Of a stretch of DNA of 64,000 bases, positions 13,722 through 19,199 are shown piece by piece. The position numbers and the translations under genes were made by a program. The notes below the pieces were generated by a model, which did not search any database, was not told the origin of the DNA, and worked only from the letters and a program-made list of their open reading frames with translations. Location: contig CAZCCG010000001.1 in assembly GCA_964497535.1 (NCBI GenBank), forward strand, positions 291,425 to 355,424, in the 5' to 3' direction. Position 1 is the stretch's first letter. Every line of letters begins with the position of its first letter. Source of the DNA: an uncultured Gammaproteobacteria bacterium. GTDB lineage: Bacteria; Patescibacteriota; Microgenomatia; Levybacterales; UBA12049.

Positions 13722-16448
13722 ATGACAAACCATGTGCAAAAAAAAGCCCTCATAGTAGCAGGCATATTATTTTTTTGTTTGCTGTTAATTGGGGCATTTA
13801 TTTTTTCAAAAAATAATTACCGACAATCTTTCCCACGAGTTGCCAAAACTCCTAAAATTGCTACCTATGTACCCGGTCAATTAGTTATCAAATATAAAGA
13901 GGGATATAATCTTTCCCAGATTTCAGATCCTGTTATTGTACAAAAAGTGGAAGCAGCATTTGCGCAAATTGGAGTGGTATCTCAGCAAAAAGTATTTCAG
14001 TCAAAAGACAAAAATCTATCAGGATATTACTTATTGAAGTTAAAACCGGGAGTCAGGGTAATACATGCACAAGAACAATTGGTAAAAATGGATATCATTG
14101 AAAATGCTACACCGAATTATAACTTGGATTTACAAGTTACTCCAAATGATCCGTTATATCAGGTTTACCAATGGAATTTGAAAAAAATCAATATGCCCGA
14201 TGCGTGGGGTGTAGCACATGCATCAAGCAAGGTTATCGTAGCAGTTTTGGATAGCGGTATTGACTATACCCAAGAAGATCTTCCTGGAAATATTATACGA
14301 GGAAATAATTATGCAACGAATACTTCCGATTCAACCGACACATTTGGTCATGGGACTTTTGTAGCAGGGATCATTGCGGCACTAACTAATAATAACAAAG
14401 GGGTGAGTAGTATTGCGGATGGTATACAGCTGATGGGTGTAAAAGTAACTGATGAAAATAAAGGAACAGCTTTGACTATGGTTCAGGGATTTGTAGATGC
14501 AGTAAATGGAGGTGCGAAGGTTATCAATTTAAGTATTGGTGCTACAAAGAGGTGCAGTGAAATTCCGATATTGGATGAAGCATTTTCTTATGCTGCAGCG
14601 CAAGGGGTTGTTATTGTTGCATCGGCTGGAAATGATAATCTGGATGCCGCAAATGTAATCCCCGCATCCTGTAACCATATTATTACTGTGGGGGGAACGA
14701 TGCAGGGAGATGAGAGAGCGCCTTTTTCAAACTGGGGAGGTCCAGTTGTTATTTCAGCCCCGGCAGTGGATATTATTTCTACAAATTCAAAGCAAAATAA
14801 ACTGGCAGCTGCATTTTCTTGTCCGGTTATATCCAGCAATTACAGCATTTGTCCCGGTACGTCATTTTCCGCTCCTCAAGTTTCAGCAGCAGCAGCGTTA
14901 TTATTATCGGTAAATCCTTCTTTAACGCCGGATGATATCAAAAACTGTTTGGTCCAGAGTGGGGATCCCATTACTACAGATAAACCAATTGGTACCCGAC
15001 TCAACGTTTATAAGGCTTTGCTTACTTGCGGCCATGTAACACCTGTTCCAAGTACAATAACTCCAACTCAAACAGCAACACTAAGCGGTACCATAATTCC
15101 CACCCCAAGCAGTACACTATCTGCCACTCCAGTGCCTACTGCACCTCCCGGTTGTTCTTATCAACCCATAAACTGTCCACAGATATGTAACACTACTCTC
15201 TGTCCAACTTGTCCTCCTGCTCAACTGATTTGTGACACTCCGACTCCGGTAGGAAGCAGTTCTGCGACCCCTACTCCTAGTATTACATCCTTGACTCCTA
15301 CTCCCACTTCAAGCAACTCAGCACGCTGTAGCGCCGCAAATGGAAATGTCGGGTCTTGTGATCAAATTGGAAGCTGTTCGTATTATTTCTGCTCGCAGCA
15401 GTGCTGGCCGCCCGGTACGCCGCTGGATGTTGCTTGTCCTCCTCGATCGGAAACATTTTGTAAGGCATTTGATAATAGCGTTAATGCCTGTGATAGCGCC
15501 GGAAATTGTTCGTACTATTTTTGCACCAGTTCCTGTTGGCCGACCGGGACGGATGTGGCGGGAGTATGTACTCATGAAATTGTGCATGGTACTGCATTTA
15601 TCGATTACAACAAAAACGGGATTCAGGACTCTACTGACCCCAGCTTTAGCGGGGGAGCGGTTGCATTAAGCGGTCAGGCTACTACTACACAAAAAACAGA
15701 CGCAGAAGGAAGCTATACTTTCTCCGAATTAAAAGCAGGTACCTATCGTGTACAGCTGCATATTGGAAATAAAACGATACAGTCATCTCCGGTTATTTTA
15801 GACCAAACTATATTTAATACTACGGTTAATTTGCCTATTGATCCTGTGATACTACAGACCACAGCAAATTCTGCGTTGAATGCTACTATTTCCATACCGA
15901 AAACGAAAATTGGCGTGAACGAACCGATTACCATTACTGCCCAGGCAAAAGGAAGGAATATCTCAAAAATCGGAATTTACCGAGCCCATCCCGGTTCTTA
16001 TACGGATTACCAATCAAATTGGAATTTAAACGTAATAGCGCAAAAAGATTGTAACAATCAAGATTCCTGTTCAGTTCCGGGAACATGGACACCCAAAGAA
16101 CCGGGAGATATCGGGACATGGTATGTAATTGTTCAAGCTGTAACATCAGACGGTATACAGTGTACCGGTAACCCATTGGTAAATGATGGTTTCATAGGAC
16201 CGGAACCGGGAGAAAAAATCTGGTACCGGTGCAATGATAAAAAAGATTCCGGAGAAATTGAAGTGCTTGCCCCTGCACAGAAAGCGGGAAAAGCATCAGT
16301 AACACCCTCAAAAAGTGGTCCAACTCCGACTCCAACACCTGTTTTATATAAGTGTGGTGAGGACCCAACATGCAGTAAACTACAAAAGAGTTTGAATCTT
16401 TGCCGTTTGAAATGTTGTCGAATAGATAATCTCAGTATTTGCAAGTAA
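13722..16448 (+). CDS. Membrane-anchored subtilisin-like serine protease (S8) with an I9-like propeptide and a large C-terminal extension containing duplicated Cys-rich modules and an SdrD-B/CnaB-like domain
   Basis: N-terminal TM anchor. Catalytic triad in D-H-S order: VLDSGIDY, HGTFVAGII, GTSFSAPQVSAAAALL. There is a T/P/S-rich linker. Two about 38-aa modules match C..N....CD..G.CSYYFC...CWP.GT. An SdrD-B-type signature is present (DYNKNGIQDSTDP...TDAEGSYTFSELKAGTYRV). The C-terminal tail is CGEDPTCSKLQKSLNLCRLKC. Confidence 0.9.
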   Translation: MTNHVQKKALIVAGILFFCLLLIGAFIFSKNNYRQSFPRVAKTPKIATYVPGQLVIKYKEGYNLSQISDPVIVQKVEAAFAQIGVVSQQKVFQSKDKNLSGYYLLKLKPGVRVIHAQEQLVKMDIIENATPNYNLDLQVTPNDPLYQVYQWNLKKINMPDAWGVAHASSKVIVAVLDSGIDYTQEDLPGNIIRGNNYATNTSDSTDTFGHGTFVAGIIAALTNNNKGVSSIADGIQLMGVKVTDENKGTALTMVQGFVDAVNGGAKVINLSIGATKRCSEIPILDEAFSYAAAQGVVIVASAGNDNLDAANVIPASCNHIITVGGTMQGDERAPFSNWGGPVVISAPAVDIISTNSKQNKLAAAFSCPVISSNYSICPGTSFSAPQVSAAAALLLSVNPSLTPDDIKNCLVQSGDPITTDKPIGTRLNVYKALLTCGHVTPVPSTITPTQTATLSGTIIPTPSSTLSATPVPTAPPGCSYQPINCPQICNTTLCPTCPPAQLICDTPTPVGSSSATPTPSITSLTPTPTSSNSARCSAANGNVGSCDQIGSCSYYFCSQQCWPPGTPLDVACPPRSETFCKAFDNSVNACDSAGNCSYYFCTSSCWPTGTDVAGVCTHEIVHGTAFIDYNKNGIQDSTDPSFSGGAVALSGQATTTQKTDAEGSYTFSELKAGTYRVQLHIGNKTIQSSPVILDQTIFNTTVNLPIDPVILQTTANSALNATISIPKTKIGVNEPITITAQAKGRNISKIGIYRAHPGSYTDYQSNWNLNVIAQKDCNNQDSCSVPGTWTPKEPGDIGTWYVIVQAVTSDGIQCTGNPLVNDGFIGPEPGEKIWYRCNDKKDSGEIEVLAPAQKAGKASVTPSKSGPTPTPTPVLYKCGEDPTCSKLQKSLNLCRLKCCRIDNLSICK

Positions 16449-19199: not shown

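Follow-up and report, generated by a model that had tools for sequence, protein, structure and literature searches.

A membrane-anchored Hsp100-like ATPase with non-aromatic pore loops and its small membrane partner in Patescibacteria

What might a protein of the Hsp100/Clp superfamily do when it is tied to the membrane and carries no tyrosine in the pore loops of either of its two ATPase rings? This question is raised by a gene pair in a 64,000-nucleotide stretch of DNA (contig CAZCCG010000001.1 of assembly GCA_964497535.1, positions 291,425 to 355,424 of the forward strand; hereafter the window), which is deposited as DNA of an uncultured Gammaproteobacteria bacterium and placed by GTDB in the Patescibacteriota (Microgenomatia, Levybacterales, UBA12049). 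The pair codes for a hydrophobic protein of 109 amino acids (aa) and, directly downstream, for an Hsp100-like ATPase of 804 aa. Hsp100/Clp proteins are the textbook example of ATP-driven threading via pore-loop tyrosines, and as the family described here retains the motor of the second ring without the gripping residues, it represents a natural experiment on what an Hsp100 ring is capable of without threading. At present, the large proteins are annotated as 'ATP-dependent Clp protease ATP-binding subunit ClpC' or left unnamed and the small ones as 'hypothetical protein', because neither Pfam nor NCBIfam holds a model for the subfamily or its partner. An earlier sequence-only reading of the window had called the large protein a very unusual Hsp100. 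The features that it listed are real, but the protein is no oddity of a single genome: it is a member of a Patescibacteria family that spans the lineage and has an obligate partner.

Two unequal ATPase rings behind a membrane hairpin

The 804-aa protein is a class-1 Hsp100, with tandem AAA+ modules (D1 and D2) followed by a ClpB D2-small C-terminal domain. It matches the Pfam families AAA_2 (1.7e-45), ClpB_D2-small (4.4e-23) and AAA_lid_9, and its best phmmer matches in the PDB lie at about 1e-110, among them Thermus thermophilus ClpB (1qvr, 3.6e-110 in two stretches) and also Bacillus subtilis ClpC. The NCBIfam models for ClpB, ClpA, ClpK, ClpV and ClpG are all matched far under their cut-offs, with 437 bits against a cut-off of 1232 for the ClpB equivalog TIGR03346 and 399 bits against 993 for ClpA (TIGR02639). 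In the AlphaFold2 model, which has a pLDDT (predicted local distance difference test) of 88.5, a hairpin and an all-helical N-domain precede D1 and D2, and the best structural matches found with Foldseek are ClpC and ClpB subunits, with a target-normalised TM of approximately 0.8. The M-domain is absent: the stretches aligned to ClpB end at ClpB residue 416 and resume at residue 514, leaving the region between them unmatched, and the two Walker A motifs are spaced by 280 aa. A ClpP-docking loop of the type [ILV]G[FL] was not found in D2, tripeptides of the form [ILVM]G[FLIM] occurring in the protein only at residues 53, 119 and 799, and a Pfam scan revealed neither a Peptidase_M41 nor any other fused protease domain.

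To assign motif equivalences, we used phmmer alignments to ClpB and ClpC from the PDB together with a MAFFT alignment with canonical ClpC, and the motif coordinates were checked by translation (Table 1). The alignments agree with the substitutions previously read from D1 (GNTGTGKEN as Walker A, ILYISDFEN as Walker B, replacement of the arginine pair by QA and loss of the pore tyrosine), as well as with the description of D2 as canonical apart from PGEGNERGE in place of GYVG. Canonical Walker A and B motifs are therefore not present in both rings but in D2 only, and the same is true for the arginine fingers, as the RR pair of D1 is gone. D2 also has a canonical sensor-1 (TSN), and on its own it matches ClpB and ClpC in the PDB with E-values of about 1e-78 and is about 40% identical to them. 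Its pore loop, GAKPGE--GNERGELT in the alignment, has a glutamate where the tyrosine of GYVG is expected, in addition to a deletion of two residues.

Are these replacements the result of decay? We assembled motif profiles from 51 species-level relatives, which belong to Candidatus Levyibacteriota and other Patescibacteria, and the degenerate motifs are conserved among them. The D1 Walker A motif has the family form G-x-x-G-x-G-K-E-N, with lysine in 45 and arginine in six of the 51 sequences and the glutamate in 37, whereas Walker B reads Y-I-P-[DE]-F-Q-N with proline in 48 of 50; Ser338, found at this position in the source genome, is restricted to that genome. The former RR site of D1 has the form [K/R..]-E-[A/V], and no aromatic residue is found at the D1 pore-loop positions 312-313. 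The D2 pore loop follows the pattern G-A-P-P-G-[EQ]-G-x-E-R-G-E-L-T, again without an aromatic residue in any relative, while the Walker A, Walker B, sensor-1, arginine finger and sensor-2 motifs of D2 are invariant in the family (45 of 46 for the LNRFD finger). The 804-aa protein is therefore not a decaying one-off, since the altered motifs are themselves conserved, and this pattern suggests purifying selection on the altered D1 and D2 motifs, which argues against chance or decay. D1 had been described as inactivated, and its motifs are indeed non-canonical; it does not appear to be simply dead, however, as the altered motifs and, in most relatives, the P-loop lysine are kept.

Two transmembrane helices (TM1 and TM2) are predicted at the N-terminus by hydropathy and by the AlphaFold2 model with the start codon at ATG 16785, in line with the two or more helices claimed before. 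Kyte-Doolittle windows above 1.6 occur exclusively in residues 12-65. In relatives, the hairpin and its flanking basic residues are preserved: basic residues precede TM1 and the motif E-[IV]-F-F-[HR]-[YF]-K-I follows TM2. Based on the positive-inside rule, both termini are predicted to be located in the cytoplasm, which would also place the ATPase rings there. The N-domain had been called Clp_N-like. This is moderately supported by an hhalign comparison with Clp_N (probability 81%, E 1.2e-5, 68 columns) and by an alignment to ClpA that reaches into the N-domain from residue 85; the resemblance is weaker than claimed, as a Pfam scan of the N-domain gave no match even at E-values up to 1. A family-specific linker connects the N-domain to D1, in which G208, G210, G218, W219, T220 and E222 are invariant in the family alignment and residues 206-210 have a low pLDDT.

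The small partner and the extent of the family

Using the linker motif as a search pattern in one genome per species, we retrieved 52 loci with 50 family members. Most of these come from Candidatus Levyibacteriota or from metagenome-assembled genomes of Patescibacteria, and many records titled 'uncultured Gammaproteobacteria' show the same synteny. A protein search returned 12 full-length relatives with 43-54% identity and the features of the 804-aa protein, as well as more remote subfamilies with transmembrane segments. When the window proteins were compared with the fetched loci by tblastn, the small partner was found directly upstream in all 49 Levyibacteriota loci that include upstream DNA. 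In the reverse direction, the genes for three divergent homologues of the small protein (P0316, P0320 and P0326) are, in all three cases, directly followed by a ClpB-like gene for a protein of 817-862 aa with transmembrane segments. The small protein is the sole universal neighbour of the Hsp100-like gene, and the pairing is obligate in the loci examined. This partner is probably the key to the function of the Hsp100-like protein.

The earlier reading had noted a small membrane protein ending at a TGAtATG junction with the Hsp100-like gene, which direct reading of the sequence bears out, the product being hydrophobic. This arrangement suggests that translation of the two genes is coupled. Twelve of 50 orthologous loci have a gap of -4 nt between the genes and ten a gap of +1 nt; in 46 of the 50, the first in-frame ATG of the large gene falls within -7 to +11 nt of the stop codon of the small gene. 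The start of the large gene had been left open between ATG 16785 and TTG 16677. We conclude that ATG 16785 is the true start, because the alignment of homologues begins at the methionine that it encodes and because the stop/start junction is conserved; NCBI and Logan records list the identical 804-aa product from this codon. TTG 16677, which would create an overlap of 107 nt with the small gene, is ruled out and is an artefact of the open reading frame (ORF) listing. For the small gene, ATG 16454 rather than TTG 16439 is the most likely start, as the resulting 109 aa are the modal length among the homologues listed.

Homologues of the small protein number 253; their length is mostly about 109 aa, and all are either unnamed or called 'hypothetical protein'. 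Just 64 clusters matched its profile when 1.84 billion cluster representatives were searched. Pfam scans of the protein and its 253 homologues gave no family, fold searches gave no specific known relative, and no fusion to the ATPase was seen among the homologues listed (about 44-155 aa); one repetitive match of 423 aa is probably spurious. The AlphaFold2 model of the small protein (pLDDT 93.6) shows a long helical hairpin made of helices 2-37 and 57-98, and residues 57-109 are strongly hydrophobic and could span the membrane either once in a long pass or twice in short ones. In an alignment of 100 homologues, residues T46, F48, P50, K52, N53, E54, Y55, R56 and G58 are invariant; the nearly invariant loop RTFFKPLKNEYRKG at the tip of the hairpin is a candidate contact site with the ATPase.

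Four distant subfamilies were also checked: P0070, P0034, whose cluster contains a protein from Parcubacteria, P0077 and P0018. They share the architecture, and in all four a gene for a protein of 110-126 aa lies directly upstream. D1 has degenerated in other ways, for example to GxGR[KR]S, and the D2 loops carry deletions of 4-12 residues, the pore loop being essentially gone in the D2 of the L064 type. A motif related to the tip loop, FS.P.LLRTLF.PW.RD, is retained by small proteins of distant subfamilies; in hhalign comparisons with the small partner from the window, those of L007 and L062 reach a probability of 95% (E about 4e-8) and that of L064 62%, and that of L063 is not significant. 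One distant membrane-anchored member (L066, 6436-9024) keeps the tyrosine in its D2 pore loop (GAPPGYQG) and has GKS in the D1 Walker A motif. Its D1 Walker B DE, D1 arginine fingers and D1 pore tyrosine are no longer present. This member may represent an evolutionary intermediate. As for the gene neighbourhood, the pair is located upstream of mraZ-rsmH-ftsL-ftsI in three loci of the distant subfamilies (directly so in L007, L062 and L067); it follows rplJ-rplL in a further locus and tuf-rpsJ in another. In L007, L062 and L067, one or two further conserved small genes (113-124 aa) precede the pair, and at least one of them looks like a membrane protein gene.

The superfamily from which the family derives is very well known, and the membrane pair itself is not described in the literature found: full-text searches for membrane-anchored or transmembrane Hsp100 or ClpB proteins in the candidate phyla radiation (CPR)/Patescibacteria yielded no description of any membrane-anchored Hsp100 from bacteria, of this family or of its partner, and Pfam, NCBIfam and PADLOC hold no model specific to either protein. 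Patescibacteria have very small genomes, and the retention of the pair in several of their lineages suggests a needed function.

What the anchored rings might do

D2 is almost certainly an active ATPase motor, given its canonical and invariant catalytic motifs. For D1, a structural ring that binds nucleotides without hydrolysing them is more likely than a loss of function, as suggested by the retained P-loop lysine and the conserved motifs. The sequence-only reading had proposed a scaffold or regulator rather than a processive unfoldase. Its second half still seems apt, as both pore loops are non-aromatic and the D2 loops of the sister subfamilies are 4-12 residues shorter, from which we infer a non-threading protein, so that a processive threading activity like that of ClpB and ClpC is unlikely; a mere scaffold is hard to reconcile with the invariant catalytic residues of D2.

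We tentatively propose, with a little less than half of our confidence, that the two proteins form a D2-driven, non-threading membrane AAA+ complex that works in a torsin-like manner with an obligate small cofactor. In this class-1 Hsp100 derivative, the N-terminal two-helix hairpin would hold the protein at the cytoplasmic face of the membrane, where it would assemble into a hexamer. D1, which keeps the glycines and the lysine of its P-loop and has lost the Walker B aspartate, the arginine fingers and the pore tyrosine, would serve as a non-hydrolysing ring for assembly, leaving D2 as the sole motor. Instead of threading polypeptides processively, the ATP cycle of D2 might remodel or gate a membrane-resident partner, and the prime candidate is the co-translated 109-aa hairpin protein, which could be engaged via its invariant loop TFFKPLKNEYRKG. 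The mode of action would thus be torsin-like in that it depends on a cofactor. We further speculate that this is a Patescibacteria-wide non-threading machine and a functional counterpart of torsins, in which D2, supported by D1 as a nucleotide-binding pseudo-ATPase, cyclically engages the invariant aromatic/basic loop of the cofactor and so remodels or gates a target in the membrane or envelope; in this extended form the proposal is possible, but on the whole doubtful. If true, the pair would give research on torsins, which are poorly understood, a tractable counterpart in bacteria.

Torsins, which act in the eukaryotic ER and nuclear envelope, are the closest functional precedent. They are Clp/Hsp100-related, membrane-associated proteins without aromatic pore loops, and they rely on transmembrane cofactors whose AAA+ fold is degenerate (PMC5425593). 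The torsin system with LAP1 or LULL1 therefore resembles the pair described here in its N-terminal hydrophobic membrane attachment, its non-aromatic pore loops and its transmembrane cofactor (PMC5425593). Both systems also combine an active with a degenerate AAA+ module, in trans in the case of torsins and in cis, through D1, in the 804-aa protein. In contrast, torsins have a single AAA+ domain, are luminal and obtain their arginine finger from the cofactor, whereas the 804-aa protein is predicted to be cytoplasmic, has two rings and its own D2 arginine finger, and its presumed cofactor is a 109-aa hairpin without an AAA+ fold. No torsin chain is found among the 60 best of the 142 PDB matches of D2 at E-values up to 10. 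Membership in the torsin family can thus be rejected in view of the two AAA+ modules, the D2 arginine finger and the missing torsin signal in the sequence, and the torsin comparison is meant as an analogy only.

The protein shares tandem D1 and D2 modules, each with a lid, the ClpB_D2-small domain and the subunit fold with ClpB, ClpC and ClpA, and the Walker A spacing without an M-domain with ClpA. It differs from all three by its transmembrane hairpin, degenerate D1, non-aromatic pore loops, shorter D2 loop and obligate small membrane partner. Unlike ClpB and ClpC it has no M-domain, and unlike ClpA and ClpC it has no IGF/IGL loop for ClpP. The plant SMAX1/D53/SMXL proteins are likewise ClpB-derived with degenerate ATPase motifs, and act as regulators or scaffolds rather than as unfoldases; the PDB match to SMAX1 is weak (E 2e-5 with the full protein and 3.7e-6 with D2). 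SMXL proteins are soluble nuclear co-repressors and reportedly have no ATPase function, whereas the 804-aa protein has a canonical D2 and a membrane anchor. FtsH and Msp1/ATAD1 share with it the N-terminal anchor, which in the 804-aa protein, too, would place a hexamer of AAA+ modules on the cytoplasmic side of the membrane. They are, however, single-ring members of the classical AAA clade whose aromatic pore loops are essential, and FtsH has an M41 protease domain in addition; the two-module Clp architecture and the lack of Peptidase_M41 set the 804-aa protein apart from FtsH.

Several points weigh against the proposed non-threading complex. The interaction between the two proteins, the oligomeric state and the ATPase activity are all predictions made from sequence, the structural model and gene order. 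Non-aromatic pore loops do not strictly rule out translocation, as illustrated by p97, whose D1 ring is not known to have aromatic pore-loop residues. The D2 arginine finger is retained, unlike in torsins, to which there is no sequence affinity. The D2 tyrosine of the L066 member might indicate that the ancestral membrane form was able to thread and that some members may still do so. Moreover, in the loci checked outside Levyibacteriota the pair has no adjoining chaperone genes, so that the proteostasis context is lineage-specific. Within Levyibacteriota, the hrcA-grpE-dnaK-dnaJ-clpB setting points to a role in membrane or envelope proteostasis. In the extended, doubtful form of the proposal, the complex might act, for example, in membrane-protein quality control or, as suggested by the mraZ-ftsL-ftsI setting in L007, L062 and L067, in the envelope or in division.

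Among the alternatives, a threading extractase or disaggregase for membrane proteins survives best. Such an enzyme would work similarly to Msp1 or the FtsH ATPase, with a charged D2 loop (E/R) in place of the aromatic grip and with the small protein as adaptor or abundant substrate. The intact catalytic machinery of D2, the retained ClpC/ClpB subunit fold, the heat-shock gene neighbourhood and the conserved, non-random state of the altered D2 loop would all fit, as would the L066-type relative with its D2 pore-loop tyrosine. Nevertheless, we regard this explanation as unlikely, since neither pore loop contains an aromatic or large hydrophobic residue in 51 family members and since sister subfamilies have lost 4-12 residues of the loop, down to the nearly loopless L064 type; in addition, there is no ClpP-docking loop, no fused protease domain and no ClpP gene in the window.

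Alternatively, the 804-aa protein could co-assemble, as a membrane tether or a regulatory subunit, with the soluble ClpB/C-like ATPase encoded just upstream, so that mixed hexamers or stacks would localise the disaggregase to the membrane. In approximately 30 of 50 Levyibacteriota loci, a soluble paralogue is encoded upstream of the pair, either directly or across an S8 peptidase or another gene. Both proteins have no M-domain, their Walker A spacings are close (283 aa in the soluble and 280 aa in the membrane protein), and the D1 pore loop of the soluble paralogue is itself unusual (ASHRG). On the other hand, at least six Levyibacteriota loci have the pair straight after dnaJ, with no clpB between, the loci of other Patescibacteria have no ClpB-like gene next to it, and the membrane and soluble proteins are just about 35-41% identical. 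As it is the small protein, and not ClpB, that is strictly conserved as a neighbour, we consider co-assembly improbable.

A role in defence against phages, as an ATPase similar to PDC-M37B or to Dodola DolB, whose partner is DolA, is suggested by PADLOC matches of 7e-34 and 4e-36, respectively, but these are confined to residues 485-669 in the generic ClpB-type D2, the small partner has no PADLOC match, and the pair lies in a housekeeping setting with synteny conserved across a phylum-level lineage instead of in a variable island; we rejected this assignment as very improbable. Finally, a decaying paralogue without function or an artefact of a wrong start, as the many missing canonical motifs might indicate, is the least probable explanation and is effectively refuted by a reading frame that is intact in about 50 species, the invariant D2 residues and conserved replacements, the conserved hairpin, the start codon fixed by the small-gene junction and the confident structural model.

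Genes around the pair

The window is part of the core chromosome of a Levyibacteriota-type CPR bacterium, with metG, tatD, nusA, infB, pnp, RNase J, ftsK, alaS, rpoB, rpoC and fusA. Levyibacteriota loci recurrently show the order dnaK-dnaJ-(unk827-clpB-(S8))-small-TMHsp100-...-nusA-infB. The S8 subtilase encoded next to the pair in the window was rejected as a constant functional partner: it is a variable insert, and a homologue separates clpB from the pair in just about 10 of 50 loci. In many others, a gene for a C-terminally extended ClpB-like protein or dnaJ immediately precedes the small gene.

Control of the pair by HrcA was also considered. No CIRCE element (controlling inverted repeat of chaperone expression; TTAGCACTC-N9-GAGTGCTAA, up to three mismatches) was found in the 64-kb window and no inverted repeats were found upstream of hrcA, in the region 3300-3775, or upstream of clpB, so that HrcA/CIRCE control was rejected and heat-shock co-regulation is indicated by gene order alone. 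A promoter and terminator scan of the window was indistinguishable from shuffled sequence; the best sigma-70-like promoter match (11/12) is located at 3702-3730.

Table 1. Positions of the gene pair, its domains and motifs, and the upstream genes in the window
Feature	Position	Strand	Basis
hrcA	3772-4503	+	Pfam scan
grpE	4531-5034	+	Pfam scan
dnaK	5015-6931	+	Pfam scan
dnaJ	7064-7981	+	Pfam scan
827-aa gene without Pfam family, between dnaJ and the ClpB-like gene	8445-10928	+	Pfam scan
Soluble ClpB/C-like gene	10965-13706	+	Pfam scan
S8 subtilase	13722-16448	+	Pfam scan
Small partner gene	16454..16783	+	109 aa, ATG start; Logan contig lists 109-aa gene
Near-invariant tip-loop motif of the small partner, RTFFKPLKNEYRKG, predicted cytosolic	16586..16627	+	Conservation across 100 homologues
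TGAtATG junction, 1-nt gap between small-gene stop and Hsp100-like start	16781..16787	+	Direct sequence reading
Hsp100-like ATPase gene	16785..19199	+	804 aa, ATG start
N-terminal transmembrane hairpin, TM1 residues 16-38, TM2 residues 44-64	16830..16976	+	Hydropathy and AlphaFold2 helices
All-helical N-domain, residues ~70-200, distantly Clp_N-like	16992..17384	+	AlphaFold2 helices within 81-197; hhalign
Linker motif GxGIGE..x..GWTPET[KR]KYT between N-domain and D1	17400..17468	+	Family-specific; invariant columns
D1 (nucleotide-binding domain 1, NBD1), degenerate ring	17469..18224	+	Alignments, family profile
D1 Walker A GNTGTGKEN (canonical GEPGVGKTA), Thr after Lys replaced by Glu	17583-17609	+	Alignment
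D1 pore loop AGAGDQSVLES (canonical AGAKYRGEFEE), KYRG replaced by GDQS, no Tyr	17706-17738	+	Alignment
D1 Walker B ILYISDFEN (canonical ILFIDELHT), Asp-Glu replaced by Ser-Asp	17784-17810	+	Alignment
D1 former Arg-finger site FTQAFEV, TQAFE (canonical ERRFQ), RR replaced by QA	17940-17960	+	Alignment
D2 (NBD2), catalytically canonical ring, and D2-small domain	18282..19196	+	Alignments, family profile
D2 Walker A GPTGVGKTE, canonical	18423-18449	+	Alignment
D2 pore loop GAKPGEGNERGELT, Tyr-less	18552-18593	+	Alignment
D2 Walker B LLLLDEFEK, canonical	18621-18656	+	Alignment
D2 Arg finger LNRFD, canonical	within 18873-18899	+	Alignment
D2 sensor-2 GARPLRR, canonical	within 19050-19079	+	Alignment

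The soluble ClpB/C-like protein has a histidine in place of the D1 pore-loop tyrosine, a replacement found in 23 of 25 ClpB-like ORFs of the fetched loci, and retains GYVG in D2. It has no ClpP-docking loop, and it carries long low-complexity extensions at both termini; relatives reach lengths of 1240-1517 aa. Homologues of the 827-aa gene (23-53% identity in tblastn) occupy the same place upstream of clpB in most Levyibacteriota loci, and one relative of 2147 aa follows a weak T4SS-pilin match. The S8 peptidase next to the pair and a second one at 57195-58757 (minus strand) are subtilisin-like with a fervidolysin-type pro-domain. The former has a signal-anchor-like N-terminus, cysteine-rich repeats (CxxxGxCxYYFCxxxCWP) and an SdrD_B domain.

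Downstream of the pair, two large genes without a Pfam family are located on the minus strand (19328-23171). Their products of 509 and 779 aa have an N-terminal transmembrane segment and Thr/Pro-rich linkers, and homologues are encoded near the pair in the loci L004, L019 and L022. A 374-aa protein (29874-30998, plus strand) contains AAA and Lon lid domains and no Lon protease domain, and so resembles a Lon-like ATPase that stands alone; the related locus L002 has a similar gene. Lastly, a 780-aa protein encoded on the minus strand (40026-43086) shows a weak Baseplate_J-like match (1.5e-6), and its gene adjoins a sortase gene.

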